From NCBI GenBank assembly GCA_027923505.1, contig BROI01000013.1:310001-374000 (forward strand): 64,000 nt of DNA, given 5' to 3'. Origin of the DNA: Mayamaea pseudoterrestris (taxonomy: Eukaryota). Position numbers and translations under genes: made by a program. Position 1 is the first letter of the stretch. Every line of letters starts with the position of its first letter. Positions 5,979 to 63,043 of the stretch are shown piece after piece. The notes under the pieces were generated by a model. That model searched no databases. It was given only the letters and a program-made list of their open reading frames with translations, and was not told the DNA's origin.

Positions 5979-6327
5979 TTGACACTGGCACTTGTTTCAT
6001 ACTATTGCCTCGTGACGTAATTGACACTGGCACTCGTTTTCTATTAAAGCCTTAAGACGTAGTTTTCACTGGCACCCGTTTCAGACTATTGCCTTTTGAC
6101 ATGGTTTTCACTGGCACTCGTTTCACAGTATTGTCTTATGACGTAGTTTTCACTGGCACTCGTTTCGTACTATTGCTTGATGACGTAGTTTTCACTGGCA
6201 CTCGTTTCGTAGTATTGCCTTATGACGTAGTTTTCACTGGCACCCGTTTCATACTATTGCCTCATGAAGTAATTGACACTGGCACTCGTTTCGTACTATT
6301 GCCTTGTGACGTAATCGGCACTTGCTT
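5979..6327 (+). repeat. 42-bp tandem array, family A (8 units plus a partial unit)
   Basis: Core CACTGGCACTCGTTTC recurs at 5983, 6025 ... 6277; approximate consensus GACGTAGTTTTCACTGGCACTCGTTTCGTACTATTGCCTTAT. Confidence 0.95.
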
Positions 6328-6614
6328 TCGGTGGCCGGGCCGGCGTCGGCCTTGCCACAACTAGCGTTCGTCTTCGTTTCGCCATTGCCACATCGACTAC
6401 CAACGAGGGGAAGGCCTTTGGACAAAGACGGGAGGAAGACGCTTGAGAGCGTGACGAGTGACAGTAGTTTCTGTAGCGTTGTCTACGGTAGAGGATACAA
6501 TTATCAGGAGTTGCACGTCAAAGTCTCTGCTGCAACTCGGCGTGTCCGAAAATTGGACAAAAGGGCCGTCGAATCTCCAAAGGGAATCTCACGCAACGAA
6601 GCTACAAAATAACC

Positions 6615-8690
6615 ATGGGGAACCAACCAAGTGCTACTCCCTTGACTGATGGAAGCAATAGCAGCAGTGGATCGTCTCAATCATCCGAGACAAGTCTAGG
6701 TGAAGTAGACGAGACGACAATCATCACCAAGGTTGCAGCAGCTGCCTCGTCTTCGCTGCAGCTCACAAGCACCTCGGCTCGTTCCACGACGACGGCAGGC
6801 TGCTTGTCCTTTTGCTGGACATCAACGACAAGAACGAATCCTCCCTTGCTTCTAGTTGTCAATACAAAGAATGACTTAGATGACGACGAAGACGGAGAGG
6901 AAAACGAGTCAGATTTCAACGTTTCATCAAGTTCCTTTTGTTCACCTTCTGAAAAGGGCAGCAATTCACCAAGTACTTCGTTCTTTCGACGAAGCAGCAG
7001 CGGGTCCATGTCATCACTACTGTTAATGGACAATGACCCGCTCGCCTATACACCAAACGAACTTGCCTTGCGAGATGATGTCATTGTTGCAGCATCTGAT
7101 TGCGCACTGGACAAGGAATTGTGGATTGTCACAACGGCGGCACTCCCCTGGTTGACCGGCACGTCGGTGAATCCACTACTACGAGCGGCTCACTTGGCCT
7201 TGAGCAATGCTCGGAACTTTCCGCATCGTGAAACAACCTTGGTGGTGCCGTGGCTGGAGGATGCGCAGGATCGAATCGCATTGTATGGAAACGAATGGCA
7301 AGATTCCACGCCAATTGAGCAGGAGGCATACATTCGAACCTGGCTGGTTGACAATGCTTGCCTGCACGTCTCGTCGTTGCAACTCAAGATTCACTTTTAT
7401 CCGGCTCGATATCACGCCACGCTTCAGAGTATTTTTGCCATGGGTGACTTATGCGAACGATTAGTTGTACGAGATCCAGAACATAGTGTTTGTATTCTCG
7501 AGGAACCGGAACATGTCAACTTTTATCGAGCGCCCGGCTTGGTGAGCTGGAGAAGCAAGTTTCCTCATGTACGTGTGTAATTTAGTTTGCGTATCTTTTG
7601 CTGCGTTCATGGGTTGTAGACTGAACCCTGCAATCGATTTTCACAGGTCGTTGGAGTCGTTCACACCAACTACAAGGCGTATGCAGCAAACAACATTGGT
7701 GGAGTAGTCACAGCACCCTTGGTAGGCGCCATGAGCTCCTTCATGGTGCGAGCATATTGTGATCAAGTCATTAAACTTTCAAGCGTCTTGCAGGATTATG
7801 CCGTTGAAAAGGAAGTGGTTTGCAACGTGCATGGAAGTCGTTCTGCGTTTTTAAGTGCGGCAGAACCAACGGGCAATGAGGTTTACTTTATTGGCAAGAT
7901 GCTTTGGGCCAAGGGACTCGACAAGTTGCTCGAGTTGCAAGCGTACTGCAAGAAAAAGACTGGTCAGTACTTCGCAATGAGTGTTTACGGCAGCGGACCA
8001 CAAATGGAGGAAATCAAGGAGGCATTTTTGGGTCAGCAGCGGCGACATTGGAACGAAGACGCTGCAAAGTCGTCATCAGCATACGAGGCTTTATCAAAAT
8101 ATTACTCCTATTCGGTCTGGAGCGGGTTCCGGCAGCCATTGCCGGTCTCCTTCAAGGGTCGAAAAGATCATGCAGCGCTCTCGAGTGACTATAAGATTTT
8201 CGTCAATCCATCGGTGACGGAAGTCCTTTGCACGACAACTGCAGAAGCGGTAGCAATGAACAAATGGGTGATTGTCCCCGATCATGCATCTAATGACTTT
8301 TTTCGAGACTATCCAAATGTGCTGCTGTACAAGACGAACGAGGAGTTCCTTCAACTTTTCCAGCATGCCAAGGCGCACGCACCAAAGCCACTCTCGGACC
8401 CTTTGAAGCATACCTTGACGTGGGAAGCGGCCACGACGCGGTTCATCGAAGCAGCCGCGGTCAGTGAGCGTGACGCCGCCCGACGAAGCCGCATTGGTGC
8501 CAAGTATGATGAGACGATTGCCAAGTGGCACTACAAGCTCGGGAAGGGCTCAACGGGCGATGTCTTGCGCAAGGTTATGGGGGGCGGTCCCGTCGCAGAC
8601 CAATACAAGTACGAGAGAAGGAGCCAAAACAATTTGGAAATGATGGGGACGGCCAGTCCATCGACAGAAGTGGAGGCGTTTGTGAAATAG
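6615..8690 (+). CDS. DGD: Digalactosyldiacylglycerol synthase (GT4); intron 7569-7646
   Basis: TTAALPWLTGTSVNPLLRA, LEEPEH, spliced HVVGVVHTNY, YFIGKMLWAKG, EVLCTTTAEA. Confidence 0.9.
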
Positions 8691-8901
8691 CGGAAGCGGC
8701 GGAGCTTGGTGGTCATTGGACCATGTGTATTGTATCTGTATATGGCGTGATGTGTGTAGTGATGTTAAAATGTTTTTGTTCATTATTATTACCTAAAACA
8801 CTATAGTGCATACACATGAATAGGCCGAATGTACCGCGCAGGCAGCAAAGTAAAGCAACTGTGGGTCCGTGCTTCAGAACCTACCCTCGGCGTCCAATTG
8901 A

Positions 8902-10498
8902 TCAACTAGCGACACCACTCTGCTTCGTTAATATGGCCTTTTGAAGAACAGGCCATGCATGGACCGGCCAGTTCTCGCTCCTGCGACATGAAACAGAAAG
9001 ACAAGTTTTTAAGCAGGCGAATATTCCAACAACCCCGTCTTGCCATCAGCAACTTTACTCACCACAACATTTTGCCCTGAATCTGCAACGAAAATTGCTT
9101 AAGCTGCCCAAAATCGTGATTTCCAGCGTCAGGTTTATCCGTCAAGGGAATCAAGAGCTCCCAAAGTATCGTCGACAACTCATCAGCGGTTCCAAACGTT
9201 CGTCCATTCACCTGGTCGCGCACAAGTTCCTTCAAGCACGGAAATTCGTACGCGCAGACAGGAACCTCACATCCAAAATAATCCAAAATCTTGATCGGCA
9301 GATCCATGCCGGACGTGCTCGTGTGCAGCGAAAGTCCAACATCTGCGCACGCCAAAAGTACTGGATAATCCGTCGGTTCCAACCAAGCCGTCATGACGGC
9401 GACATGCTGCCAGGCATATTGTGAAATGCGCTCCTCGTAGGCTTCCTTGAGTGCGCCCTTGCCTGTCAAGACGCAGACAACCTTGAGCGACGACGAGGAT
9501 GAAGATGCTGCATGATCGCCCTGCTGCAGTCGCGACGCAATGTGCTCGTCCAATTGCTGCAACGCCGTCAGCAGCATGCCAAAGTTTTCGTCCCGCGTCC
9601 AGGACGTAGCGCTGACAATGAGAGCGGGTCGGCCCTTGCGTGGACGAAAGCGACCAGGAGCGTACTCCTCGGTGAATAGTGTCTGCAGTGGCAATTTTGT
9701 CGCGGTGTTTGCATCAACGTTCGCACCTGTACTACTCATGGCATCAAACCAATGCTTCGGACACGCCTGCATAAACTTGGAATGCAGCTTGCCAAGCATG
9801 GCATGTTGCTCCTTGATGGAGCGAAGGCGAAAGAGAGCCGGCGGACAGTCGTACAACACATCCGAGTTTTCCTGCGGAACATTCATTTCCGCCGACCCGA
9901 GAAACTGCTTCAAAGCGCGCGTCACAGTCAAGTGTCCATCCGCTTTGGGCGCAAAGAATGTTTCATATTTACGAGCTATCCATCGCACCAAGCCGCCATC
10001 GGGAAGCATGCTGTATCCCAAGTTATGCCAGTCAATGACCAAAGCCGTCCTTGGCGAAAACAGGCGACAGTAGGCAACGGCAACCATGAGAAGCGGAACA
10101 GCAGGCGGATTCTGCACCAGCAGACAATCTACGGGCGTTTCCCTTGATACTCGCATCAAGAGCGCATGTGACAGCAAACAAGTCAATGAAACAATGCGCC
10201 AAAGCAAGTAGAGCGGCCAGGAAATGACGCGAACCATTGTACTGGTCGAGTCTTCATCGTTGCGCAAAATCTTCAAAGAAGGAAATCTCACCACTGTTAG
10301 TTGCTTATTGTCTTCATATTTCTTCAAAGCGTCAATGAGCTTTTCTCCCGTGTATCCGACAAAGTGAACCTTGTGACCGGCTTGGAGGAGGGACGTTGCC
10401 TGATACTGCATGCGAGGAGAGCGTCCCAAGTCGCCCAACACCACTACAACCACATGGTAGATTGGCTTGCTACTGGCGTGGCCAGTGCTAATGTTCAT
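8902..10498 (-). CDS. ALG1: Chitobiosyldiphosphodolichol beta-mannosyltransferase; intron 8981-9062
   Basis: VLGDLGRSPRMQY, QNPP, IDWHN, SATSWT, HTSTSGMDLP; the spliced last exon gives WSENW. Confidence 0.92.
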
Positions 10499-10578
10499 AG
10501 TGATGACTAAAGAGTGGAAATCTTGTCGAGCAATGAGACAGGTTCGGCGAGATCAGATGCTGAAGCAGCAGCAGCAAG

Positions 10579-11418
10579 ATGCGCTGTTGTGCTGCTTGGG
10601 CTCGGCCGTGCGCTCTCCGACCTTCCATGTGTCGTAGCGTGACAGAATCAGTACCGGTCCGACGCTCGCACCTTCGTTTCATCGACGTCCACCGATTTTC
10701 GCAAGTGCGTCTCACAAATCGCCACCATGGCGCAGTTACGAGCGCAAACTGTACCATGCTCTCTATAACTAGCACAACTAGAGCAATGCTATGCAGTAGC
10801 AAGCGTGTGTCTTTGAAAGCAAGGAACGTTGCGCTCTTGCGCTACGCTTCGACAGAAACCGACAACGGCAATGATGGGCAAGTCAACTACTACTCGCTCT
10901 TGAATGTGCCGCAAACGTTTTCCATTCAGCAAGACGAACTCAAGCAAAACTACCGCGACCTCATGACGCAGCATCATCCGGACAAGTTTCGTCATCAAGA
11001 AAATGCTGCAGGCGATGCTGCCGACAATCAAGACTATGCATCATTGGTGACGCTTGCCTACGACACCCTCAAGCGTCCCCACACGCGGGCGCAGCACTTG
11101 CTGGCGCTGGAGACTGGAATAGACATGGAGAATGATCATCAAGTGCAGGAACACTCTGAGAATATCATGACGACTCTGCCGCCGGAAACGTTAATGCACG
11201 TCATGGAGCTGCGCGAGTCAATCGATGCAACGACTGCACCAGCCGCTCTGCAGTCGCTCTTGGAGGAGAATGAGAATCGCATGCAAGATACGAGTCTAGC
11301 GCTGGAGCAAGCCTTTCACGAAAAGGACTACGATAACGCCACCTTGCTGACGGCTCAAATGCAGTACTGGAACCGCATTCATGAAACGATTCGCGACAAG
11401 ATGCACTTGTTGTCGTGA
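10579..11418 (+). CDS. HSCB: Fe-S cluster co-chaperone HscB/Jac1 (probably mitochondrial); true start uncertain
   Basis: J-domain with HPDKF, AYDTLKRPHTRAQHLL, LMHVMELRE and C-terminal MQYW; basic presequence. Confidence 0.85.
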   Translation: MRCCAAWARPCALRPSMCRSVTESVPVRRSHLRFIDVHRFSQVRLTNRHHGAVTSANCTMLSITSTTRAMLCSSKRVSLKARNVALLRYASTETDNGNDGQVNYYSLLNVPQTFSIQQDELKQNYRDLMTQHHPDKFRHQENAAGDAADNQDYASLVTLAYDTLKRPHTRAQHLLALETGIDMENDHQVQEHSENIMTTLPPETLMHVMELRESIDATTAPAALQSLLEENENRMQDTSLALEQAFHEKDYDNATLLTAQMQYWNRIHETIRDKMHLLS

Positions 11419-12038
11419 TTGTGCGGGTGTTTCGTCGGCCACGTTTGACAGGTACGTTGCATACAGGATTTACCTGCTTGGCTACTGCAAATTGTATCTC
11501 CCGTCTGGCTGCAAAAGTGCTTGAACGAGGTTATTCCATTTGCTACATGAATGCGCAATGTCTTTATAGTTGGACGGGTCGGTCTTTTTTGTGACTGCCC
11601 GTCCTGGAAGGCGTGCTACATGACATGTTGCATCTCACACTGTTGCTCCAGTTTAGCTGATGACAGAGAGTCGAACAGAGTTTCGTCTAGTTGTCGCGCA
11701 AAGCGCATGGGAGTGGCGCCGCGGCGTCAACCCGCATTGACTGGCGTCCAGTTGCGCGTGCCAGAATCGCAAGCCACGAGAGTCGACATAGGGGAAGTGC
11801 TTTTTAACGTGATTGCAATGCACATTGTGGATTGGGTTTCGTTTGCTCTAAGATCATCATTGTTGCAGGATGAGTTGAGTTGCCATGTGTACATGGGAGA
11901 TATGGTTCACACATTTCTTGGGCGGAAGACTTGTTAGGGCGTATGCCAAGATTTGCTAGTCGTTCGAAACGTAATAAGTAACATACACTGTAAACTATAA
12001 CAAAGTAAACTATTTTTGTTTTGTACGCTTGCGTGGTA

Positions 12039-12692
12039 TTAACGAATATCCAGTACATGAGAACGGAACGATCTGATCCTGGTACAAACAAAGGCTACAT
12101 CCCATTTACCCGTGACGGGGTGTACTTCAAGCCAGCCAATCATATTTGCAATAGTTGCACTTGGTTTCATTATAATTGGAAGCGATGCTTGCTGCGCACG
12201 ACGTTCGATTTCTGCAAACAAGTCAGCTTTCTTAGGCTTGTAGTAACTTTTCCTTGCCACTTTAAACTCTGACAAATTAAAGTTGGTGATATCTCTCGCA
12301 TCGTGCATCCCAATAGCCATAGCAAACACTTGCCGCATGTTTGAGTTGTCTTTTTGAGACTTGATGTATCGTTGGCACGGAGACAAAAACTTCTCTGGTA
12401 CGTTACTGCGTTCGAATTCTTTCTGCATTTTGCGAATAAAGCAATCGTAATTGCAATCCCGGCGCTGTTTCAATAGAATCATAAAATTATTATATTTTTT
12501 CCAATTGAACTTACGATACTTGTAGTTCGTTTCGATGTAACCGGGAAGATCCATTGAGCTCCCGGCGCCTCCGTCGTCGCCTGAATCCTTCATGAAAATT
12601 AATCGAGCGCGAAAGAGCTGGTGGTTCATTTTCGGAACATTGTTTACCAGCGAGATATTACTATAAGATTTTCTAATTAGAGAAGAAAGCAT
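12039..12692 (-). CDS. Hypothetical basic protein in an AT-rich patch
   Basis: ~217-aa ORF rich in K/N/Y with visibly lower GC than its neighbours; no enzyme motif recognised. Confidence 0.45.
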   Translation of the reverse strand: MLSSLIRKSYSNISLVNNVPKMNHQLFRARLIFMKDSGDDGGAGSSMDLPGYIETNYKYRKFNWKKYNNFMILLKQRRDCNYDCFIRKMQKEFERSNVPEKFLSPCQRYIKSQKDNSNMRQVFAMAIGMHDARDITNFNLSEFKVARKSYYKPKKADLFAEIERRAQQASLPIIMKPSATIANMIGWLEVHPVTGKWDVAFVCTRIRSFRSHVLDIR

Positions 12693-12759
12693 GTTGGACA
12701 ATGGCGCTTGAATGAAATCTTGCAGTGAAGTCGCAAGTTAGATTGCGTCGTAACGCGCG

Positions 12760-13054
12760 TGACGCTGTTTTCACTGGCACTCGTTTCACATTATAGCCTG
12801 CTGACGCAGTTTTCACTGGCATTCGTTTCTTACTATAGCCTTTGTGACGCAGTTTTCACTGGCACTCGTTTCACAATATAGCCTCTAAGACGCAGTTTTC
12901 ACTGGCACTCGTTTCACATTATTGCCTAATGACGCCGTTTTCACTGGCACTCGTTTCGTGCTATTGCCTCATGACGTAATTGACACTGGCACTTGTTTCG
13001 TGCTATTGCCTCATGACGTAATTGACACTGGCACTCGTTTCATACTATTGCCTT
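12760..13054 (+). repeat. 42-bp tandem array, family A (7 units)
   Basis: Cores at 12772, 12814, 12857, 12900, 12942, 12984, 13026. Confidence 0.95.
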
Positions 13055-13164
13055 TCACTGCCGTTTCAACTCTCACTCAGTATTGTTCTCTCGACGACCA
13101 TGGAGGACATCGATTTCAATGGTAGCTGCCCGTCATTACAATCACTCTATCATCACAAGAAAGA

Positions 13165-14361
13165 ATGAAATCTTTTGAAGCGCTCGCTGCGTTTCTCTTG
13201 CTTCTTGGTGCCTCTGCCTTTGTCCCCTCGCATCATCATCTGTCACAAACTACCGTCTCCTCATCACTTAATCGTTTCATAAAGAGCCATTTATTCGTCG
13301 AGTCGAACGATAATGAAGAAGCTAAACGACTTCAAGAAAAAGCTGAGACCCTTCGAGAGCAGATTCGCTCATTGGAGAAGCAATTGAATCGAAACAATCC
13401 ACCGAGGCAGCAGCAGTCGCCTCCTCCTCCTTCCAAGCGAGACATGGAAACGTCATCGTCTACACCAACTCTCGTCAACAAGCGCATTCTCGTCGCTGGA
13501 GCTAACGGCCGACTCGGCAGCATGGTTTGTCGCTACTTGCTGCGCAACCATCCGCAAACGGAAGTTGTAGCGGCCGTTCACGTGGTGGGCGAAAACAGTG
13601 CCACCGCGCGAGGCTACGGCCGACTCCAGTATGAGGTTGGCGCCGAAGATGGACGCGGATCCATTGGAGCGGCCTGGAGCGCAGCTGACGAAAGGACAGC
13701 TACCTTTGAGTATGATGAGCAAGTCATGGGAGAATACAATTTGCGCAACCTTCGTATTGTAGAGGTGGAACTACTTGATCCGCTCCAATGTCAGAGTGTT
13801 TGTGATGAATCGATTGATGCCGTAGTATGGTGCGCGACTGACTTTAACGGCAATCTACCGCGAGCAATTAGTGGATTGAACGTGGCATTTCTCTTTCGAG
13901 CCGTCTCGAACCCAATCAAGGGTCGCGTCGAGGTGGAAGGCCTGGAGAACATGTTAGGCGCACTCAAACTGGCCAAGCAGGAGCGCAAACGACAGCGCGG
14001 CTACGATGCGACTAATGATCCAGTCAACGTTGTGCTTGTTTCGACGGCGCCGGATGCTCTTGATGATTTTGAAACGCCATTTGGGTCCTTTCTGGGCATT
14101 AAAAGGCAAGGCGAAGAGTTGCTCGACTCCTTTCCCAGCCTTACATCAATTGCTTTGCAAATGAGTCGTTACGGGGACAACTTTGTTGAGGAAGGAGTTG
14201 ATATACAGACACAAGTTGCGACGAAGGGCGATGCTAGCAGTGTTGACGACTCATCGCGACGACGGATAAATCGACGCGACGCCGCCAAGGCAGTGGCGGA
14301 TGCCTTGCTGGATCAAGAGCTGATTGGCAAGACCGCACAAGTATGGACTGCTATAAGGTAG
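13165..14361 (+). CDS. Plastid-targeted NAD(P)-binding Rossmann protein (atypical SDR/NmrA-like)
   Basis: Signal peptide plus ASAF motif; ILVAGANGRLG; INRRDAA. Confidence 0.8.
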   Translation: MKSFEALAAFLLLLGASAFVPSHHHLSQTTVSSSLNRFIKSHLFVESNDNEEAKRLQEKAETLREQIRSLEKQLNRNNPPRQQQSPPPPSKRDMETSSSTPTLVNKRILVAGANGRLGSMVCRYLLRNHPQTEVVAAVHVVGENSATARGYGRLQYEVGAEDGRGSIGAAWSAADERTATFEYDEQVMGEYNLRNLRIVEVELLDPLQCQSVCDESIDAVVWCATDFNGNLPRAISGLNVAFLFRAVSNPIKGRVEVEGLENMLGALKLAKQERKRQRGYDATNDPVNVVLVSTAPDALDDFETPFGSFLGIKRQGEELLDSFPSLTSIALQMSRYGDNFVEEGVDIQTQVATKGDASSVDDSSRRRINRRDAAKAVADALLDQELIGKTAQVWTAIR

Positions 14362-14523
14362 ACTACTCATAAATGCGTATAAAAGGCTTTTCATCTGGTT
14401 GGATGCGACCATAGTAGTTTATCGTCAATCGAACTACTGTACCTTTGAGATCCAGTCGTAGTGGTACTGATATTCTGTCGCGAAGGAAGTTTTGTTGCTC
14501 TCTTCCTGCCATGCAAATCGACC

Positions 14524-15894: not shown

Positions 15895-15930
15895 CGATGT
15901 ATAAAACAATTACATCATTGTTCACATTAG

Positions 15931-17289: not shown

Positions 17290-17845
17290 AACTGACGGTT
17301 GCGTTGTTCTTCAGCAGTTCGGCAGCCTCTGTCGCTTACGAAACACAAAATCTGCAAGACAATCTCACGCTTCAATTCTCCAATTGTCTACACTACACCA
17401 ACTATCATCAAGCACAGACTGTAATGTTGGTCCCAGTGAGTGATCCGAAAACAAGCAGGAGACGAGGAGAGGTTGCGGCCGAAGTCGACGGTCATTCGGA
17501 TAGAAAGGGGGCAGTCATGGAGGACGCACGATCTGTGACTCTTGTGACGCCATCAGTCCCGCTTCAATGACCGAAACTCAAAGTTAACGTTGGGGTTTTG
17601 GGAAGCGTTTCTTGTGGCGTCGGAGCGACCATGACATTCTGATTCGGCCACATTCGTCGCCGCAAAGCAAGCGATTATAGAACCTTTCATTGTGCAGACG
17701 GGTTACACAGTCGTGATAACAAATCGGCTTGATTCTAAAGTAGCATCAATTATATTGCAACGGCGACAGATACGCAGCAACTCCATCGCAAGCAGCAAAC
17801 ATTTCCCCATCCGTCAGCTTCTCAATAAGACAACTCCGTATACAA

Positions 17846-19892: not shown

Positions 19893-20139
19893 ACAGATAA
19901 TAGTGTCGAAATGCTAGTGCAGCAGATGCTATGTGATCCCGAAGCCTTTATTAGCTTACTTTACATTGCGACTAGAAGCTGCCTTAGTATTCTGTTTTGA
20001 TAGATTATATGCAACCTTTTTATAAACTTGAATAGCAAATGTTTGGCCAGGCATGCCCCATGGCATACCACACGTTACGCTCATTGTCCGGTTCCGGTAC
20101 ATGGGTCGCCAGCAAGAGTGTCATTAGCGGGTCGTAGTA

Positions 20140-28058: not shown

Positions 28059-28108
28059 CTTTGAATTCAAAATAGACAACTGTCTATCGAAAACGGAAAC
28101 GAAACAAC

Positions 28109-36688: not shown

Positions 36689-37741
36689 CTATTTCTTCTT
36701 GTGCTGCTGCTCCCGCACATGACCAACAAATTTGCGATAGACTTGATCGTCCGTTGCTTGCTGCTTGGGTGGTAGCGTGCGACGCTGCACGTTCGTCGCC
36801 CCTCTTCGCGCCGCCTCAAAGCCAATGCGATCGTCATTGGCGTCAGCAGTATCAGTTGCATCAACAATTGCTTTCGTGTTGCTCCTTGTTGGATTGTTGT
36901 CAACGAAAGCTGCACCAGTACCCTGTTGTTGCTGCTGCTCGACAAATTCCTGCGGCAGATCCATGGTCCGTATGCTCGGCTGAGCAAACCGGCTTGGGAC
37001 GGCGTGATGACTCGCCCAACTTGTTGGCAATGTATGAGTACCATTCTTGTCGTTCGATAATGCGTTGCGCGGCAATTGCTGCTTTGAGTCTACTCTTGTC
37101 GGAGGCAATATTACTTCGGCAATGCCTGTACCCGCCAGCATGGCGCCGCCCGTTCCAGTATCTCCCTCGGCCTTTGCATTATCCTCCGTGTCAAATTTTC
37201 CTGCCAATTGACGCGCCTTGGCTGCCAGCTGCTGGTAGAGTTCCTGTTCGTCGGCTGGTAAGTGTGAGCTGTCTAGTTGCACCTGGTGCTGCCTATCGTT
37301 CTTCATGGCTGATGCAATCTCACTGTTGCTCGCAGCGCTGTCAAGCTTTTGCTGAATAAATTCTTCCATTGCCTGTTGATGTTTCGATTCCCAAAGTCCA
37401 AGCTGTGACTTATTGTCTTGATCATTGTCGCTATCAATATTCTTTAAACCTGCAGCGCGTCGCTTTCGTTCCAACACCTTGTATTCGCCATCGTGTGGAG
37501 CAACGAGCAGGTCTTGCGCATTGACGCCTCGCTTATACTGCATATCCGTCAGGAGTTTGCGCTTTCTCTTGGTTCGCTGAATCCGATCAAAGGTGCCTTC
37601 ATTGTCAGCGACTCCGTCTCCATCAAAAGCAACAGCTGCTGCTTGAGTTTTATCAGCAGCATCGTGCTCAGCCTCGCTGTCGTCGCTAGTTTCCTCGCGT
37701 CGACTGCTTGGCTTTCGTTTCAGAGTTCGCTTCTTGAACAT
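36689..37741 (-). CDS. C9orf78/Tls1 (HCA59)-like splicing-associated protein
   Basis: MEEFIQQKL, MLAGTGIAEVILP, C-terminal ATDDQVYRKF. The longer ORF merely extends upstream into the repeat array. Confidence 0.7.
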   Translation of the reverse strand: MFKKRTLKRKPSSRREETSDDSEAEHDAADKTQAAAVAFDGDGVADNEGTFDRIQRTKRKRKLLTDMQYKRGVNAQDLLVAPHDGEYKVLERKRRAAGLKNIDSDNDQDNKSQLGLWESKHQQAMEEFIQQKLDSAASNSEIASAMKNDRQHQVQLDSSHLPADEQELYQQLAAKARQLAGKFDTEDNAKAEGDTGTGGAMLAGTGIAEVILPPTRVDSKQQLPRNALSNDKNGTHTLPTSWASHHAVPSRFAQPSIRTMDLPQEFVEQQQQQGTGAAFVDNNPTRSNTKAIVDATDTADANDDRIGFEAARRGATNVQRRTLPPKQQATDDQVYRKFVGHVREQQHKKK

Positions 37742-37848
37742 GCTGTTTGTGAATGCAGTTGGCGACCTTAAAGTTGCGTTCGATGTGATGGTTGCAAGGC
37801 TGATGGCGCTTGAACGAATGGCCATCCTGTTTGCTTTACAGTTGACAG

Positions 37849-38280
37849 TACACTCTGGCTTACAGTGCCAAAAACTTTGATTTTCAACGGCTGTCAATGC
37901 TACACTCTGAACCAGTGTGCCAAAAAGTTTGATTTTCAACGGCTGATGATACTACACTCCGAACCAGTGTGCCAAAAACTTTGATTTTCAACAGCTGTCA
38001 ATGCTACACTCCGAACGAGTGTGCCAAAAACTTTGATTTTCAACGGCTGTCAAAGCTACACTTTGAACCGGTGCGCCAAAAACTTTGATTTTCAACGGCT
38101 GGCAATGCTACACTCCGAACCAGTGTGAACCAGTGTGCCAAAAACTTTGATTTTCAACGGCTGTCAAAGCTACACTTTGAACCGGTGCGCCAAAAACTTT
38201 GATTTTCAACGGCTGGCAATGCTACACTCCGAACCAGTGTGAACCAGTGTGCCAAAAACTTTGATTTTCAACGGCTGTTT
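37849..38280 (+). repeat. 52-bp tandem array, family B (8 cores)
   Basis: Core GTGCCAAAAACTTTGATTTTCAACGG at 37865, 37917, 37969, 38021, 38073, 38135, 38187, 38249. Confidence 0.95.
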
Positions 38281-38429
38281 TAGGAACTACACTTTGATGC
38301 ACAGTAGCTTGTATATCAAAGTAAGATATTGAATCACAGTGAACTCGCGCCAGCAAACCATGGCGTCTCATCGGTACTGATGTTGCACCGCGCCCGAAAC
38401 CATACATGCAGTCAACTCTCTCGACGACG

Positions 38430-40271
38430 ATGGGACGAGGAGGCCGGCGCAACCGCAAGCGTAAGCTTTCCGCAGAAGATGAAGGAAACACGAATGCAAA
38501 AGAAGAGGCTCTGACGGTACATGTTACTTGGTGGAGCGAGACTTGTAGCTCTAGGAAGGAGCTACTGGATTCGAAGCCTTTGCAAGTTGATGATGAGGCT
38601 TCAGCAGTCGTTCCTGTTCGAGATGATGACGATGAAACAAGCCTTACCCGTCATTACTATACTTTGCTTGCCACCAAGTACAAGTGGAAGTCACCGACCC
38701 TAGTTCAGTCACATGCATGGCCGCATATCTTGAGCAGACAGAGCCCTGGACAGCGACGAAAGCATGTCGCCTTTGTTTCGGCGACGGCATCCGGAAAGAC
38801 GCTTGCATTCGGCTTGCCGCTACTCATACGAGCTCATTATCAGAAACAACATGGACTAGTGCTGGTTCCAACGAGGGAGCTTGCCGGTCAAGTTGGAAAG
38901 AATCTGAATGATTGGAATGCGACGATATTGTCGTCCGGCAAAATGCACCATGCAGCAACGCAAAACACAGTGATTCTCGTCATGCACGGCGGTGGCGCGT
39001 CGACGACAATCCACATGGACGCCATTCACAAGGCTTTGAGCAACGAAACGTTTCTCATCATGGTTTCAACGCCTGGACGGTTCCTTGATGTGCTGGAAAC
39101 AATGGAACAGGCGGCAATAAACACTAAAGAAAGTCCTGGTTCCAAGCTACCTCCAATCAAGCTTTCCACAATTTGTTTGGATGAAGCGGATCGCTTGGCA
39201 ATACAAGCTGACTTATCCAAACAAGTGGACGACATTTTGGAACGAGTCATTGAGGGACGTGATCAGCAGCAGCAGCTGTGTCTGTGTTCGGCAACGCTTG
39301 CGGCGGCAGCTCGCACAAAGTGGGACGATTGGCTGCAGCGTACGACTCATTCCGATTGCGTCTTGGTTCAGATTGGAGGATGTACCAGTCAGAAACATTC
39401 GCAAAATGGAGGCGACGCATCTGTTGCGAGTGATGCCGCACCCGATAGCGAGCAGCACTCACCCAACAGCGCCCGCAGTACCAACATGTTTTCTCGCATA
39501 CCAACCAACTTGACGCAAGTATTGCATGTTTGCGCCGAACACAAGAAGCCTCGCAAGCTCATTACGACGCTACAAGGCATTCGAACCGACTCTAAAGGAA
39601 AGACTGGTCTTGGTATCATCTTTTTCAATCGCATCAAAACACTACAATTTGCCAGCAAGCTGCTGCAAAAGAGTCACATTAGCAGTCTTGAGCTCCACAG
39701 CCAGTTGCACCAGCACGAGCGTGACCGCGCGATGCAACTGTTTGCGAGTGGACGTGTGCCGCTGCTACTGGCGACGGATGTGGCAGCCCGCGGCTTACAC
39801 GTTAGCCACGTCAAGTATATTGTGAATTACGATTTTCCTGGTAATTTGGAGCAATACATTCATCGGTGTGGTCGGGCCGGGCGAAACCAAACGGCAAATG
39901 CTGCTGGCGTGGTTTACAGCTTTTTCACGCGCAACTTTAGCGTCATGGCCAAGGACTTGGTGGTGTTGCTCAAGGCGACGAACCAGCACGTTGATGCAAA
40001 CTTGATAGAGTTGGCGCGTGACACTAAAAGGCATGCGGTTGCGTCAAACGAATCTGGGCAGGCTGTAAAAGATGCAAAGCGGCAACGAGCGAGTGATGGC
40101 GAGTTAGCAGTGGAGGAACGTGAAGAAGAATCTGCACCAGAAGACGAAGAAGGAAACGACGGTGCTGCCATGAAGGATCATCCTGCGAATCGAATTGTGT
40201 TGAGACGAGCTGGAAACGTAAGCGATGCATCATCCGACAGCGACGACGAGGAAGACAATGAAAGCAAGTAG
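38430..40271 (+). CDS. DEAD-box RNA helicase
   Basis: [40 protein letters not shown]. Confidence 0.88.
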   Translation: MGRGGRRNRKRKLSAEDEGNTNAKEEALTVHVTWWSETCSSRKELLDSKPLQVDDEASAVVPVRDDDDETSLTRHYYTLLATKYKWKSPTLVQSHAWPHILSRQSPGQRRKHVAFVSATASGKTLAFGLPLLIRAHYQKQHGLVLVPTRELAGQVGKNLNDWNATILSSGKMHHAATQNTVILVMHGGGASTTIHMDAIHKALSNETFLIMVSTPGRFLDVLETMEQAAINTKESPGSKLPPIKLSTICLDEADRLAIQADLSKQVDDILERVIEGRDQQQQLCLCSATLAAAARTKWDDWLQRTTHSDCVLVQIGGCTSQKHSQNGGDASVASDAAPDSEQHSPNSARSTNMFSRIPTNLTQVLHVCAEHKKPRKLITTLQGIRTDSKGKTGLGIIFFNRIKTLQFASKLLQKSHISSLELHSQLHQHERDRAMQLFASGRVPLLLATDVAARGLHVSHVKYIVNYDFPGNLEQYIHRCGRAGRNQTANAAGVVYSFFTRNFSVMAKDLVVLLKATNQHVDANLIELARDTKRHAVASNESGQAVKDAKRQRASDGELAVEEREEESAPEDEEGNDGAAMKDHPANRIVLRRAGNVSDASSDSDDEEDNESK

Positions 40272-46856: not shown

Positions 46857-47873
46857 CTACATGTTCAATCCGTTAAAGACACGTGGAGTCGTTCCATCCT
46901 CCTCAATGATTTCCAGTACCTTGTTGCTAGCCTTGGGGTCAGTCAAGGCGCCGACGCAAACATCAGCCACATAGTCGCGCGAAATTTCTCCAGCTTCTAA
47001 CGCATCCTCTCCGTAAATGCGCAAGTCGCCCGTTGGTGGCTTGGCCTTGAGGCCGCCGGGTCTTACAATCGTGTAGTCAATTCCAGATGCTTTTAAATGA
47101 TTCTCCGCAACCAGTTTCTCATCCAATACGTTGCCAAAGGCATTCGTCACAATAAATCCTGGCGAACTGGCCTTGCCAATGGCGCGCGCATTGGTCAAAA
47201 TGCTGGAGACCATGACAATCTTCTTCACGCCAGCTTGCTTGGCAGCATCAATGAGCTTGCAGGTACCAACATTGTCAACCTCATGCGCCGCTTGGTTCAT
47301 TTTCAAGGGATTGCCTGGAACGAAACCAACGGCAATGATCAAAGCGTCGGCGCCGGCAAGTGACGTGGTTGCCATGTCATCCACACTATCCTTGGCAACG
47401 TCAAGTTTCTTCAAGCTAACATTGGCACTTGAGCTGACGGCGGCAACGTTCTGCACCATGGCGCCTCTGACGACGGTGGATGATTCCGACAGCGCCTGCG
47501 TGGCCTTGTCCACGTTGCGCACGCCTCCAATCACCTTCAGAGACGATTGGGAGGCGAGCCGCTCGAGGATGCGTCGACCCGTTTGACCCGTAGCGCCAGC
47601 GACGACAACGGTTTGGATCGTTGCAGCATTGGCGGCGAATGACAATGATGACGGTCCGAATGATAGAGGAATTTTACTTGCAAACGTTACGGCTGCAACC
47701 GTAGAAACGGCGGTGCGAAAGGCTTGCCGACGATCCAAAAAGTAGTTATCATGCTCGTGTTCATTGCTGCTTGCGCCAGCTAGTACTCGCGTACCAAAGG
47801 ATGGACGAGCACTTGGTGCAAAGGCAGCAGACGGTGCTACCAGTAGGGAACAGACAATGACAAAGATCTTCAT
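46857..47873 (-). CDS. Plastid NAD(P)-binding protein (Tic62-like atypical SDR)
   Basis: SAAFAP presequence, DRR motif, VAGATGQTG, TIVRPGGL, ISRDYVA. Confidence 0.85.
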   Translation of the reverse strand: MKIFVIVCSLLVAPSAAFAPSARPSFGTRVLAGASSNEHEHDNYFLDRRQAFRTAVSTVAAVTFASKIPLSFGPSSLSFAANAATIQTVVVAGATGQTGRRILERLASQSSLKVIGGVRNVDKATQALSESSTVVRGAMVQNVAAVSSSANVSLKKLDVAKDSVDDMATTSLAGADALIIAVGFVPGNPLKMNQAAHEVDNVGTCKLIDAAKQAGVKKIVMVSSILTNARAIGKASSPGFIVTNAFGNVLDEKLVAENHLKASGIDYTIVRPGGLKAKPPTGDLRIYGEDALEAGEISRDYVADVCVGALTDPKASNKVLEIIEEDGTTPRVFNGLNM

Positions 47874-47959: not shown

Positions 47960-48200
47960 CCACAGTCGACTTCCGTTGATAATCAAAGTTTTTGGCACTA
48001 CTGTTTAAGCCACAGTCAGCTTCCGTTGAAAATCAAAGATTATGGCACTACTGTTTGAGCCCTAGTCAGCGTCCGTTGAAAATCAAAGTTTTTGGGTCAA
48101 CTGTTTGAGCCACAGTCAACGTACGTTGAAAATCAAAGTTTTTTTGAGCCACAGTCAATGTACTTTGAAAATCAAAGTTTTTGGCACTACTGTTTGATTC
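47960..48200 (-). repeat. ~50-bp tandem array, family B variant (5 cores), inverted relative to the 37849 array
   Basis: CCGTTGAAAATCAAAGTTTTTGGCAC (reverse complement of the family B core) at 47973, 48023, 48073, 48123, 48162. Confidence 0.9.
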
Positions 48201-48300
48201 ACAGATATGATAATCGTACCGGTACACGAAGTCATGACGCGCGCGGATCGCTTGTTCCAGAAACTGCATGACTCGTCTTTGTATCGTCTCATTTACAATC

Positions 48301-49215
48301 ATGGCATCTGCTTTCGAGGAAACCTTTACCGGGATTGTGAATGTTCGTCCTGGTAGAGAGCTGTTTGTTCGCAAGGTTCGAATCGGCAGAGGAGAAAGCT
48401 GCCATACAGAAACGGCGCCAGCAAAGAAAATCTTGCAGGTTGTTTTCGTTCATGGAACTTGCGCAACTCAAGCGCAGTATGAATATCTATTGGCGTCCGT
48501 TGCCAAAATGTCTCAAAGTGAAAGTAAATATAGCGGCATTCAGTTAGACTGTCTCTTGTACGACCTGTTGGCCTGCGGCCAATCACCAATGTCCCGGCGC
48601 TACAGCGACTATGCCAGAAGCGAAACGTGCCAAGACTTGCAGGCGCTATTGGCCGCTCATACGGATCCAAACTTGCCAATTTTGTTCATTGGGCATTCCT
48701 ACGGACCCACTATATTCTTGTACCTTGACAGCAAGTCGCTGGCGAATGTTTTGGGCTACGTATTTATCGGCTCGGCCGTTCGCACCCCCAGCTTTTCGCG
48801 TCAGGATGGAGGACACCAAATTTTTGTGCTGCCACTTTTCATACTTCGATGCTTGCAAAAATCGCTCAACAAGGCTTTTGTCAAGCAAGCTGTACATCCG
48901 GATAATATTGAAATACAGCAATTGTCCTTGGACGAGTGTTTCCATAATGACATGTTCATGGCCAAGGCGTACCACACGCAGTCGCGATGGACAACTCCGG
49001 AGCAAGCTGTAAAAGTAATAAAAAACAAGCCATGTCTTGTCATTCATGGGGCAGATGATGGCATTATATCGATTACTGCTGCTCAGGAACTAGCGAATCT
49101 TCTCAAGACTCCTTTGCATGACGTTGCAATGGCGAGTCACTTGGTCATGATGGAGCAACCTGACAAAGTTGCCTCGCTGATCTTGGATTTTATAGTCGAC
49201 AAGTGTATCACTTGA
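48301..49215 (+). CDS. Alpha/beta hydrolase
   Basis: VFVHG, GHSYG nucleophile, IHGADD, SHLVMME. Confidence 0.85.
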   Translation: MASAFEETFTGIVNVRPGRELFVRKVRIGRGESCHTETAPAKKILQVVFVHGTCATQAQYEYLLASVAKMSQSESKYSGIQLDCLLYDLLACGQSPMSRRYSDYARSETCQDLQALLAAHTDPNLPILFIGHSYGPTIFLYLDSKSLANVLGYVFIGSAVRTPSFSRQDGGHQIFVLPLFILRCLQKSLNKAFVKQAVHPDNIEIQQLSLDECFHNDMFMAKAYHTQSRWTTPEQAVKVIKNKPCLVIHGADDGIISITAAQELANLLKTPLHDVAMASHLVMMEQPDKVASLILDFIVDKCIT

Positions 49216-49252
49216 CTAAATTGGATCATTTTTTCATCAAATTATTTATTGT

Positions 49253-58620: not shown

Positions 58621-58739
58621 AGCAAGGACCATACAGCGCTGACAGCACCGCATCCCGTCTGCTCTGCGAAGTTAAGCAGCGCCTGGCCTGGTTAGTACTA
58701 CGGTGGGGGACCACGTTGGAATCCCAGGTGTTCTTGTTT
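58621..58739 (+). rRNA. 5S rRNA gene
   Basis: CCATAC, CATCCCGTC, GAAGTTAAGC (box A), GTTAGTACT, GGGGGACC; terminal stem AGCAAGGAC/GTTCTTGTT; oligo-T terminator; TATA-like element about 30 bp upstream. Confidence 0.93.
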
Positions 58740-61025: not shown

Positions 61026-61157
61026 ATACTGTAAAATTTTTGTAAAATAGCTAGTGTACAGTTAAAGACTCGATGATATGTTCAGTAAACGTCTCGACTG
61101 TTCCTACTTTTGCTCGTTTGGCTGATTGTTGGTTTGGTGAACCATCTCATTTCGATG

Positions 61158-62510
61158 CTATGTACTTGACTCGACTGTGACTACTTTTGCTCGTTTGGCT
61201 GATTGTTCGTTTGGTGAACCATCTCGTTGTTGCTCCTTTTCCAGTCGATCCAAAATGTACGCATCTGAATAGGATCGTCCGTCTCCAAACTCTTTGATTG
61301 TCGCATCCACTGCCTTGCCGTCGAGCCGAACGTGAGCCTGGTAATTCACATTCCAGACACGACAAAGCTGCTCCAATGACTGGCAGTCACATGTTTTTCC
61401 AATTGTTTGACCCGCCGGATATACATGAGGCAGAAACGGAACCAAGTGCGGAGGAGTTCGTCGAAAGGACATCATTTCCGAAATGACATACTTGGTGTTC
61501 TTGTAGTGAGTGTAATACTTTAGAGAGTGCTGCAAGTATTGTTGAATGACAGTCGTCTTGTCGAGAAGGAGACCCGAGTCGTAAGAATACTTGGCATCCG
61601 CAATGATGTTAACGTCAGTGGGCTTGCGAAAAATGCTCGCATTGTAAAGGGCGGGTCGTCCGAGCAAGACGCCGCGAGCGCCAGTCGACGAACAATAGTC
61701 AGTAAAGTCTTGCCTCGTGTAAAAGTCTCCATTGACAAAGAATGGTATGCTCGAATGTTTCGCAGTGACAATCTCCAAAACTTGCTTGAGCTCATCCTTC
61801 TTGGCAGGTTGCACTTCGGTGTCACCGACCCGTCGACCGTGAATGGCAATCGCATTGCATCCGGCATGAATCAAGCCAGACACAAAGTCCACCGTCGCCT
61901 GCGTCGTTGGTAGCAATCGAATCTTGGCCGAAACTGGAGTGTTTGGAACAGCGTTGGAAATGGAGCGAATAATAGTGCAGGCTCTAGCAGGGTCACTCAG
62001 CAGTGCCGATCCCATGCCGCCGCTCGTGCTAAACTTTTTGGGACATCCCATGTTGACATCAATGCCGTCAGCATCTTGACTAACATGCGTCGCTACTTGC
62101 TTGGCTAGTTCTGAACAGCCCGTTCCAATCTGAACAATCAACTTGCCTGTTTCTATCTTTGGATCGATTCGTAGCAGCAAGGGTGCATGTTCACCCATTT
62201 TTCGAATCGTTTTTCGATTCGCGTTAGAAACATCCTTGACGTAGTCAATTGTTGTATCGCTCGAGTCACTGTAGGTAGTCACGACTCGCTTGGTGTTTAG
62301 AATGCTTCGATCCATGAGTTCCTCCGTGTATACCAAGTCGGCTCCATACTCCAAGGCCAATGTCCGAAGAGGCGTGGTTCCGGCGCGGACCATGGGAGCG
62401 AGACAGACGAGAGGGGCACGTGATGACGGTTCATGATCATTCGTATTGCCATTGCTGCTTCTATCAGAGAGTCTGTAGAGTCGTCTGACTCTATCTTCCC
62501 TGCTGCTCAT
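61158..62510 (-). CDS. DUS2: tRNA-dihydrouridine synthase (Dus2-like)
   Basis: LAPMVRAGTTPLR, QIGT, DVNMGCPKKFS, KIRL, HGR, NGD. Confidence 0.88.
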   Translation of the reverse strand: MSSREDRVRRLYRLSDRSSNGNTNDHEPSSRAPLVCLAPMVRAGTTPLRTLALEYGADLVYTEELMDRSILNTKRVVTTYSDSSDTTIDYVKDVSNANRKTIRKMGEHAPLLLRIDPKIETGKLIVQIGTGCSELAKQVATHVSQDADGIDVNMGCPKKFSTSGGMGSALLSDPARACTIIRSISNAVPNTPVSAKIRLLPTTQATVDFVSGLIHAGCNAIAIHGRRVGDTEVQPAKKDELKQVLEIVTAKHSSIPFFVNGDFYTRQDFTDYCSSTGARGVLLGRPALYNASIFRKPTDVNIIADAKYSYDSGLLLDKTTVIQQYLQHSLKYYTHYKNTKYVISEMMSFRRTPPHLVPFLPHVYPAGQTIGKTCDCQSLEQLCRVWNVNYQAHVRLDGKAVDATIKEFGDGRSYSDAYILDRLEKEQQRDGSPNEQSAKRAKVVTVESST

Positions 62511-62673
62511 TGAATGGTCTATAATAATGGGGAGGTGAGTGTAGATTGTAAGGGACGAGTCGTCTATCTAGTGCTACTACTATAATCTGCAATGCATCCA
62601 TGGCCGCGAGACGCGCAAACGTGCGAATGATGAACGCAAACCAAAACCGGTAAGATGTCTTTCTACAATCCCA

Positions 62674-63043
62674 TATGACGTAATTGACACTGGCACTTGT
62701 TTCGTACTATTGCCTAATGACGTAATTGACACTGGCACTCGTTTCATACTATTGCCTTATGACGTGATTGACACTGGCACCCGTTTCGACATATGACGTA
62801 GTTTTCCTTGGCACTCGTTTCACAATATTGCCTTGCGACGTAGTTTTCACTGGCACTCGTTTCGTACTATAGTCTTATGACGTAGTTTTCACTGGCACTC
62901 GTTTCGTACTACTGCCTTATGACGTAGTTTTCACTGGCACTCGTTTCGTACTACTGCCTTATGACGTAGTTTTCACTGGCACTTGTTTCGTACTATTGCC
63001 TTATGACGTGATTGACACTGGCACTCGTTTCAAGGCAATAGTA
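62674..63043 (+). repeat. 42-bp tandem array, family A (9 units)
   Basis: Cores from 62688 to 63016 at 42-bp spacing, with one 34-bp unit. Confidence 0.95.

Follow-up and report, generated by a model that had tools for sequence, protein, structure and literature searches.

The window analysed here is a 64-kb stretch of a diatom genome, and Tandem Repeats Finder was applied to it for array detection. Five arrays are present, three of family A (42-bp period, 7–9 units) and two of family B (50–52-bp period, 5–8 units). Tandem Repeats Finder and word searches both place them where a first-pass annotation of this DNA had put them. As that annotation had also claimed, each array is located between the start of a minus-strand gene on its left and the start of a plus-strand gene on its right (5/5). 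The arrays and their flanking genes are listed below.

4729..5889, minus strand: gene left of A1, annotated, encoding a 386-aa protein with a self-match and two homologues (44% and 29% identity); codon score 0.059
5979..6335, plus strand: A1, family A (Tandem Repeats Finder 5983–6313, 42 bp × 7.9)
6615..8690, plus strand: right of A1; ORFs 6615–7580 and 7731–8690, probably one glycosyltransferase gene
12039..12692, minus strand: left of A2; 217-aa ORF with a conserved domain in its C-terminal half
12760..13072, plus strand: A2, family A (Tandem Repeats Finder 12760–13053, 42 bp × 7.0)
13165..14361, plus strand: right of A2; Rossmann-type NAD-binding protein with a plastid-type presequence
36689..37825, minus strand: left of B1; 378-aa protein, no Pfam match, codon score 0.152
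37849..38290, minus strand (of the core): B1, family B (Tandem Repeats Finder 37865–38278, 52/62 bp, ~8 units)
38406..40271, plus strand: right of B1; DEAD-box helicase
46857..47873, minus strand: left of B2; NAD(P)H-binding (NmrA-like) protein
47960..48204, plus strand (of the core): B2, family B (Tandem Repeats Finder, 50 bp × 5.1)
48268..49215, plus strand: right of B2; alpha/beta hydrolase
61158..62510, minus strand: left of A3; dihydrouridine synthase
62674..63043, plus strand: A3, family A (Tandem Repeats Finder 62674–63031, 42 bp × 8.7)
63139..63999, plus strand: right of A3; ORF running off the window, codon score 0.095, one weak longer homologue

No common functional theme is evident among the ten neighbouring genes, one of which (6615..8690) we take to be galactolipid-synthase-like. 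The placement of A2 had been said to depend on the reality of the ORF at 12039–12692. A word-index search returned no match to this ORF, not even a self-match. An all-against-all HMMER search gave seven matches at E≤1e-3 (best 7e-8) to a C-terminal domain of ~100 aa, and because this domain is conserved, the ORF is probably a real coding sequence.

The arrays fill 49–76% of their host intervals (A1, 49% of the interval between the minus-strand gene 4729–5889 and the plus-strand start at 6615; A2, 66%) and end 23–279 bp from the nearest start codons, the shortest distance being that from the left edge of B1 to the ATG of its left gene (23 bp). B1 consists of eight units, each of 52 or 62 bp, and contains a duplicated two-unit block of 114 bp with 99% identity (38013–38278). 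B2 consists of five 50-bp units, one of which is cut to 39 bp; its core is inverted relative to that of B1, and beyond the 26-bp core its unit differs from the B1 unit. A family A 16-mer, allowing at most 3 mismatches, has 25 matches in the window, 24 of them inside the family A arrays (chance expectation 0.78), and all 12 window matches of a family B 24-mer lie inside the family B arrays (0 expected). Unit profiles searched with nhmmer detect no further units in the window at E<0.1, and neither word searches nor nhmmer finds solo or degenerate units elsewhere in it, so that presence is all-or-none. The motif TGGCAC is found in the units of both families, as had been reported. However, the alignment score between families A and B is reached by 136/2000 and 201/2000 shuffles, and the shared motif does not show that the two are related.

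The family A block has a composite architecture. At each locus it spans ~0.3–0.37 kb and is built from five interior I units (containing TAGTTTTCACTGGCAC) and E caps (containing TAATTGACACTGGCAC). The unit order is partial E, E, five I, E and degenerate E in A1; five I (with the private variant TGACGC), two E and a degenerate partial I in A2; and E, E, truncated E (34 bp), five I and partial E in A3. The last 12 bp of A3 (63032–63043) repeat the unit tail in inverted orientation and close a hairpin. The number of I units is thus exactly five in all three arrays, with E units only at the array edges. The 84-bp E dimer is ~96% identical between A2 and A3 (12972+13014 versus 62676+62718; 2 and 1 differences per 42 positions); the A2 I units differ from those of A1 and A3 at 5–9 positions per 42, and the nearest neighbour of 11 of the 21 full units lies in a different array. 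The five-I, E-capped layout and the E-dimer identity together indicate that the family A arrays are copies of one composite template and not independently grown repeats. The equal I count could instead stem from a length constraint. This caps-plus-five composition and the near-identical cap dimers are new here. The arrays begin and end at differing unit phases, and signs of local turnover are visible in the TGACGC variant carried by all five A2 I units and in the 114-bp duplication of B1. Variation along the family A unit is very uneven (dispersion chi-square p of ~1e-14, a value obtained from units that are not independent), with little or no change at positions 9–10, 13–21 (three single-unit departures) and 24–28 (one).

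Multiplicity was assessed by comparing word depth between array bins and flanking bins in three DNA-like runs (X1–X3). Array words are ~200–350 times deeper than the flanking DNA, a depth that is not a calibrated copy number. The summed word depth is 36,385 and 28,270 in the two array bins of X1 versus roughly 80–190 in the flanking bins, 6,631 and 5,362 versus about 21–49 in X2, and 1,649 and 1,426 versus about 3–10 in X3. In all three runs many joints and loose ends bear different flanking letters, and some link opposite strands; in X1, 1,368 of the 2,439 contigs placed on a 20-kb stretch fit two places. The excess word depth and the many different flanks argue that the family is high-copy and dispersed, and the uncalibrated depth would correspond to a rough multiplicity of 10^2–10^3 arrays. 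Among the contigs listed, none spans an array, and X1–X3 show neither a donor nor a circle, and neither an empty allele nor an insertion polymorphism.

These data bear on the explanation that the arrays are ordinary promoter minisatellites that arose independently and were placed by chance. Tandem repeats are a common feature of promoters in compact eukaryote genomes, and the positional statistic of the window is weak (per-promoter P=0.15, see below). However, the same units, the two-type architecture and the near-identical cap dimers recur at unlinked loci and the word depth is in several hundred-fold excess. By architecture, unit identity and depth, an independent origin is already contradicted, and we give it next to no credence.

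The arrays might alternatively be the internal repeats of a classical non-autonomous transposon, either an element with terminal inverted repeats (TIRs), such as CACTA or hAT, that has subterminal repeats, or a Helitron. The true termini of this promoter-targeting element would be located beyond the arrays or be degraded. Such an element would account for blocks that are high-copy, dispersed and uniform in size; CACTG-like words open the units, and the genome does contain live mobile DNA, as the active LTR element of the window demonstrates. The ends of the arrays do not fit it. Ten 600-bp flanks compared by blast yield only chance matches of 11–19 bp, the alignment of the three family A arrays reveals no shared ends, and a reading of the junctions at all five loci finds no target site duplication (TSD) at four of them and only a 5-bp TCGGT match beside A1, which agrees with the earlier report of neither TIR nor TSD. 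Shared non-repeat sequence is likewise lacking at 3/3 family A and 2/2 family B loci, the arrays differ in the unit phase at which they start and end, and, the gypsy-type element aside, the window holds no transposase. A MITE or other TIR DNA transposon with internal repeats was accordingly rejected, having neither terminal inverted repeats nor TSD. A solo LTR, which would have a common non-repeat body with TG..CA ends and a TSD, was rejected as well, as no flank is shared and the LTRs in the window (27821–28025 and 32837–33041) contain no units. Helitrons are defined by a 5´ TC, a 3´ CTRR that follows a subterminal hairpin and insertion between A and T. The terminal hairpin of A3, with a 12-bp stem (z=-1.78; 10/200 shuffles fold equally well), and the GC-rich palindrome with CTAG after A1 resemble such ends. 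However, each occurs at one locus only and is not common to the three family A loci, which led to rejection of a Helitron-type element. We therefore regard a classical transposon as unlikely.

Two further identities were rejected. A coding 14-aa repeat is not supported by the consensus, in which only one of the six unit frames is open by reading. A coding repeat would vary mainly at third codon positions, but in this frame the variable positions 29, 30, 32, 36, 41 and 42 are all codon position 1 or 2; no ORF of at least 120 aa crosses any array in the window. A tRNA-derived SINE or known RNA is not supported either, with 0 tRNAs and a 5S rRNA (58621–58739) as the sole Rfam match in the window.

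To place the arrays relative to gene orientation, a liberal gene map of the window was used, which comprises 11 divergent, 11 convergent and 10 tandem junctions. All five arrays lie in divergent junctions, in intervals of 0.4–0.7 kb that they largely fill, and they occupy 5/11 of these junctions when both families are counted and 3/11 for family A alone. The earlier claim that tandem and convergent junctions are free of such arrays holds for families A and B only: an unrelated 5.3-kb satellite (53124–58386) fills one tandem junction. The all-divergent pattern has P=0.005 under a per-junction null, P=0.003–0.015 under a per-net-base null and P=0.039 among promoter-bearing junctions; P rises to 0.15 when one divergent junction counts as two promoters. 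Removal of four doubtful ORFs leaves 4/5 arrays in divergent junctions (P=0.04–0.41). The "divergent only" pattern is weakly supported. The proposal of an element that targets bidirectional promoters thus stands in part: architecture, depth and flanks argue for dispersal, but, with a per-promoter P of 0.15, this window does not establish that bidirectional promoters are targeted specifically and not just like any other promoter-bearing interval.

The first-pass annotation had also offered a replication origin, which would make the arrays iteron-type origins or episome-maintenance or centromere-like sequences in divergent promoter gaps. The direct repeats do recur at about whole helical turns, and the arrays occupy promoter-containing gaps between genes, a frequent location of origins in other eukaryotes. 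Beyond these formal likenesses nothing favours it. The GC content of the arrays (40–45%) is close to that of other intergenic DNA (46%), which indicates that there is no AT-rich unwinding element; no initiator-like gene is found among the adjacent, ordinary genes; and the density of three family A arrays in 64 kb, like the high multiplicity, goes far beyond what origins require. Plasmid and bacterial iterons are ~20 bp long and lie in a replicon beside its initiator gene and an AT-rich region. The diatom arrays share with them the direct repeats at whole helical turns, for which cooperative protein binding is thought to operate in iterons, but have no ~20-bp unit, initiator gene or AT-rich region. 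An origin function is therefore very improbable.

Our favoured explanation, to which we give about an even chance, is that both families consist of satellite-like minisatellite modules dispersed in euchromatin, which enter or survive in promoter DNA. Ready-made blocks would reach new sites as copies, without any need for transposon termini. Small circles could be excised from arrays and reinserted, copying could accompany repair or recombination, or an unrecognised element could carry the blocks. The blocks would enter, or be tolerated only in, the nucleosome-poor 5´ intergenic DNA of a compact genome. After insertion the arrays would be locally homogenised (TGACGC in A2, the 114-bp duplication in B1), and any effect on transcription would be secondary. 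The location of all five in divergent intervals would then result mainly from a promoter-interval bias and small numbers, since a divergent interval offers two promoters. A true preference for divergent junctions may nevertheless exist, as the window pattern is nominally significant under the per-junction and per-base nulls (P=0.003–0.005). Lying so close to the start codons of ordinary housekeeping-type genes, the arrays must at least be compatible with promoter function.

Dispersed satellites in euchromatin include the short arrays of Drosophila 1.688 and the human euchromatic alpha repeats. The euchromatic satDNAs of Tribolium are reported to have spread in gene-rich regions and to show recent inter-array exchange, with eccDNA or TE routes proposed (PMC11610590). 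The diatom modules resemble Cast1-9/TCAST of Tribolium castaneum in forming short head-to-tail, single-family arrays across gene-rich DNA, and in inter-locus exchange followed by local homogenisation without transposon termini (PMC11610590). Unlike the beetle, Drosophila and human satellites, the diatom monomers are much shorter (42 and 50–52 bp), the blocks are uniform (~5–9 units) with a fixed two-type architecture, and the arrays sit inside 0.4–0.7-kb promoter intervals that they mostly fill. We know of no long heterochromatic source array for these modules.

If the multiplicity and placement seen here are representative of the whole genome, a considerable part of the promoters in this compact algal genome would contain one and the same imported repeat block. 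Such a finding would inform how diatom promoters are constructed and evolve, and how satellite-like DNA spreads without transposase signatures. It would also suggest the blocks as possible parts for diatom engineering, portable as bidirectional promoters or insulators, and would be a practical caveat for the assembly and annotation of diatom promoters.

Besides the lack of a donor or of polymorphism in X1–X3, further observations count against satellite-like modules of this kind: the uneven variation along the unit would also fit selection on putative binding sites, and the periods of 42 and ~52 bp are near four and five helical turns. A reading that we hold tentatively, with a smaller but real chance, makes the arrays selected cis-regulatory elements, that is, iterated candidate binding sites through which both neighbours would share a bidirectional promoter, an enhancer or an insulator. 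In family A the putative sites would be a bZIP "aureo box"/CRE-like TGACGT and a factor site on the CACTGGCAC..GTTTC block, and in family B the CCGTTGAAAATCAAAGTTTTTGGCAC core; phasing on one helix face would give cooperative factor recruitment, and the module may have been mobile first and co-opted later. Invariant blocks within otherwise variable units are consistent with this, as are the regular periods, the filling of the intervals and the position of all five arrays close to, and between, divergent starts. TGACGT is present at 15/24 family A unit heads (A1 5/8, A2 2/7, A3 8/9) and the ACGT core at 17/24. TGACGT matches the site bound by diatom aureochrome bZIPs, whose target promoters are noted to contain multiple spaced sites (PMC4937327). 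However, the ACGT core is lost in 5/7 A2 unit heads (TGACGC or AGACGC), family B has no TGACGT, and the A–B similarity is not significant. Outside the arrays neither motif is enriched (TGGCAC, 25 observed versus 34.5 expected; TGACGT, 34 versus 33.4), the ten neighbours suggest no theme, and hundreds of copies are hard to square with a specific regulon.

A bolder combination, which we consider doubtful, is that the "caps plus five" family A module and family B are a mobile bidirectional-promoter or insulator cassette that colonises a large share of bidirectional promoters and spreads without transposon termini. Its putative readers would be a bZIP on TGACGT and a binder of CACTGGCAC..GTTTC, phased on one helix face, and, if true, it would represent a new class of promoter-resident mobile cis-regulatory element. 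Related deliveries of transcription factor (TF) sites are known: MITE-amplified TF motifs in plants are transposon-borne arrays of such sites, and Helitrons carry heat-shock elements in Caenorhabditis. As in these systems, a repeated module with a potential TF site, TGACGT, would reach many promoters; unlike them, the diatom arrays have no TIR, TSD or Helitron ends, and TGACGT is a candidate site. Variable tandem repeats also occur in yeast and human promoters near gene starts, where they may tune expression or nucleosome occupancy. The diatom tandem repeats likewise lie within promoters and close to gene starts, but the yeast and human repeats are locus-specific sequences, whereas in the diatom a single family is found, apparently at many loci, and its copies have a higher-order structure in common.

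Tandem Repeats Finder recovers all five short arrays at the places named in the first-pass annotation, as three family A arrays and two family B arrays:

5983–6313, family A array A1, 42-bp unit, 7.9 copies
12760–13053, family A array A2, 42-bp unit, 7.0 copies
62674–63031, family A array A3, 42-bp unit, 8.7 copies
37865–38278, family B array B1, core on the minus strand, 52- and 62-bp units, ~8 units
47960–48204, family B array B2, core on the plus strand, 50-bp unit, 5 units

A1, A2 and A3 share one common orientation. The 16-base family A core (≤3 mismatches) has 25 matches in the window, 24 of which are inside A1–A3 (chance expectation 0.78), and all 12 window matches of the 24-base family B core are inside B1 and B2 (chance expectation 0). 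An nhmmer search with unit profiles revealed no further units in the window below E=0.1, and solo or decayed copies are absent from the 64 kb. Accordingly, the units are present in the 64 kb solely as blocks of 5–9. B1 and B2 have a 26-bp core in common with an alignment score that is reached by 0 of 2000 shuffles, and are clearly related. The word TGGCAC is indeed present in both families but provides no evidence of one system. The A–B resemblance (AGTTTT..TGGCACT) has a score reached by 136 and 201 of 2000 shuffles, which is not significant and lends no support to a shared ancestry of the two families.

The new observation of this analysis is a composite template in family A. When cut into units, the arrays contain two types, the cap units (E), which carry ..TAATTGACACTGGCAC.., and the interior units (I), which carry ..TAGTTTTCACTGGCAC.., in the following layouts:

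A1: partial E, E, five I, E, degenerate E
A2: five I, E, E, degenerate I
A3: E, E, truncated E, five I, partial E

The I-unit count is exactly five in each array, and the E units are confined to the array edges. In the distance matrix, the E dimers of A2 and A3 differ at 2 and 1 of 42 positions, and 11 of the 21 full units have their nearest neighbour in another array. The A2 I units bear private variants, with TGACGC in all five, and are 5–9 positions off the I units of A1 and A3. Slippage acting separately at each of the three loci does not yield such a pattern. The five-I layout, the near-identical E dimers and the cross-array nearest neighbours show that the family A arrays were all copied from a single composite block and homogenised locally afterwards. 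B1 contains a duplicated 114-bp two-unit block (99% identity), which indicates local turnover here as well.

Array starts and stops fall at differing unit phases, the ten 600-bp flanks have merely 11–19-bp chance matches in common, and flank comparison together with alignment bears out the earlier statement that TIRs and TSDs are lacking. Copies of one block could also be produced by a classical transposon with unseen termini, which, beside borders of this kind, we regard as improbable. The last 12 bp of A3 repeat the unit tail in inverted form and make a hairpin with a 12-bp stem (63004–63043).

Four public sequencing runs containing the region (X1–X4), three of them DNA-like, were compared with window positions 1–20000, which cover A1 and A2. 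Summed word depth, which is not equal to copy number, in the two array bins is 36,385 and 28,270 in X1 (~80–190 alongside), 6,631 and 5,362 in X2 (~21–49), and 1,649 and 1,426 in X3 (~3–10). In X1, 2,439 contigs were placed on the 20 kb, 1,368 of which fit two places, and many joints connect positions in A1 with positions in A2; the letters inserted at these joints differ, and some joints pair opposite strands. The opposite-strand joints suggest that similar inverted junctions are present elsewhere in family A. At the array borders, loose ends show a low-agreement consensus, which indicates many different flanks. The depth is taken only as a sign that family A is high-copy and dispersed; our guess would be 10^2–10^3 arrays, and scattered arrays, at three per 64 kb, could by themselves explain the excess. 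Among the contigs listed, none bridges or joins across an array, and no empty allele was seen. Run X4 has an RNA-like look: its depth is 66–258 over the PsbO bins versus 0.6–11 elsewhere, the array bins show no excess (5.2 and 4.3), and one contig begins at 13102, 49 nt beyond position 13053, where the last full A2 unit stops. Contigs cannot reveal RNA starts or levels, and the X4 pattern was not counted as evidence.

The window is gene-dense (~49% GC) and encodes the nuclear PsbO and PsbQ; among solved structures, the closest to this PsbO are the PsbO chains of diatom photosystem II, with ~88% identity to the best by our own count from the printed alignment, which places the host among the diatoms. 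A gene map built from ORFs, Pfam matches and a codon-usage score comprises 33 features separated by 32 junctions, of which 11 are divergent, 11 convergent and 10 tandem. All five arrays are located in divergent junctions, between minus-strand and plus-strand gene starts, where they fill 49–76% of the interval and end 23–279 bp away from the flanking start codons. An example of how short array-free bidirectional promoter gaps get here is found at 10498–10579, where just 80 bp separate the start codon of a minus-strand glycosyltransferase gene from that of a divergent plus-strand HscB-type co-chaperone gene.

The A2 case rests, as recognized at the outset, on the weak minus-strand ORF 12039–12692 being real. 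Its codon score of 0.041 is at the lower edge of the confident set (0.041–0.213), and shadow ORFs score −0.13 to 0.03. A word-index protein search gave neither a match nor a self-match for this ORF, and gave a self-match and two homologues for the neighbour 4729–5889. An all-against-all HMMER search returned 7 proteins at E≤1e-3 (best 7e-8), all matching within the C-terminal domain of ~100 residues. The ORF is probably a real coding sequence, and the A2 junction is thus probably divergent. The 217-aa product has a conserved ~100-aa domain with the pattern FAMAIG..KP..L.EI.RR..NW..WL.HPV, which is shared by seven other proteins; a 929-aa MORN-repeat protein contains two tandem copies of it. 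No Pfam family matches the ORF, the protein collection has no gene call for it, and an atlas look-up of the domain gave no usable match. Over 11746–12370 the X1–X3 contigs diverge from the window by ~5% and show several 1-base gaps; over most coding stretches the divergence is ~1–2%. They also contain 1-base deletions at 11709 and 11820, within the doubtful ORF 11551–11937, which is therefore probably non-coding.

The claim that the arrays occur only in divergent junctions holds as a count (5/5), but the statistics are weaker than stated, with P from 0.003 to 0.15 by null. The values are 0.005 per junction, 0.003 per net intergenic base, 0.039 for promoter-bearing junctions alone (0.015 per base), and 0.15 when each divergent junction is counted as two promoters; without four doubtful ORFs, 4/5 arrays are divergent and P is 0.04 to 0.41. 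We give almost no credence to the arrays being independently arisen promoter minisatellites placed by chance. The window supports the location of the arrays in 5′ intergenic DNA and their absence from 3′ gaps and genes; placement in bidirectional promoters specifically is not established by it.

The 42-bp unit is unevenly conserved. Positions 9–10, 13–21 (3 single-unit departures) and 24–28 (one) are invariant or nearly so, and positions 29–32, 36 and 41–42 are variable (dispersion p ~1e-14, for units that are not independent). TGACGT, the 'aureo box', described in PMC4937327 as the site bound by diatom aureochrome bZIPs, heads 15 of the 24 family A units, just 2 of 7 in A2. The periods of 42 and 50–52 bp are close to 4 and 5 helical turns. 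The main rival, which we consider possible, if rather unlikely, reads the arrays as selected, phased binding sites that form a shared promoter, enhancer or insulator. It is compatible with dispersed blocks if a mobile block was co-opted. A replication origin seems very unlikely. As general promoter words, TGGCAC and TGACGT show no enrichment outside the arrays. Hairpin or cruciform potential of the units is unremarkable (z = 0.46, −0.86, 0.46 and 0.83). A coding repeat was rejected by ORF scan and position-wise variation along the unit, and the units have no match that would indicate a tRNA, SINE or Rfam origin. The GC and CpG contents of the arrays are similar to those of other intergenic DNA. 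Long-term methylation decay is not supported by the CpG o/e (0.73–1.34 versus 1.11 in other intergenic DNA), yet transitions make up 14 of the 17 differences at CpG positions.

The observations are of dispersed, apparently high-copy blocks with a fixed architecture and without transposon hallmarks, which lie in promoter gaps and are locally homogenised. We give roughly even credence to their being euchromatic dispersed satellite-like blocks copied into promoter gaps. Ready-made blocks would be copied to new sites via a terminus-independent route, which may involve small circles excised from arrays and reinserting, repair-templated copying, or a carrier not yet recognised. The blocks would enter, or be retained in, nucleosome-poor 5′ intergenic DNA. 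Divergent gaps, each with two promoters and more tolerant than any other target, would together with n=5 explain the all-divergent pattern. The blocks match in kind the euchromatic dispersed satellite DNA of Tribolium, which, according to PMC11610590, is spread in gene-rich regions with recent inter-array exchange and proposed eccDNA or TE routes. The differences lie in the size of the monomer, the uniform size of the blocks, the fixed layout of two unit types, the position within very short promoter gaps, and the host. The observation in the first-pass annotation is largely right, and its interpretation, a protein-binding system or an element targeting bidirectional promoters, is partly supported. 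The arrays merit genome-wide follow-up.

Judged by titles and abstract openings, none of the papers found by literature search outside subscription journals describes diatom arrays of this type. An exact family A 20-mer has 0 matches in metagenome contigs. A tolerant two-core family A pattern found one locus in a collection scan, on a 10-kb metagenome contig, which was rejected as a chance match to an unrelated 45-bp satellite; this contig consists almost wholly of different minisatellites (periods 23, 25, 31, 33 and 45 bp) unrelated to either family. A tolerant core pattern of like kind has 0 matches in prokaryote genome contigs, and the family B core has 0 in viral contigs.

The claim that no such array occurs in a tandem junction is true of families A and B, but an unrelated 5.3-kb satellite (53124–58386, 180/360-bp period) fills the tandem junction after a SOUL-domain gene. 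A 69-bp array (54999–55862) is embedded in it, and a single 5S rRNA gene (58621–58739) lies 235 bp past its end, with no 5S match within the satellite. Another tandem junction holds a full-length Ty3/gypsy-type LTR retrotransposon (27821–33041) with a gag-like ORF (28109–29206) and an RT/RNase H/integrase ORF (29297–32692), which is free of A and B units. Its LTRs, 205 nt long, share 100% identity, which suggests a very recent insertion. At 495–4495 (plus strand), a cyclic-nucleotide-binding ORF containing three cNMP domains precedes protein-kinase ORFs that lie in different frames, and together these are probably a single PKG-like gene with introns; a contig of the RNA-like X4 has pieces on either side of 3263–3995 with a shorter unaligned stretch in between.
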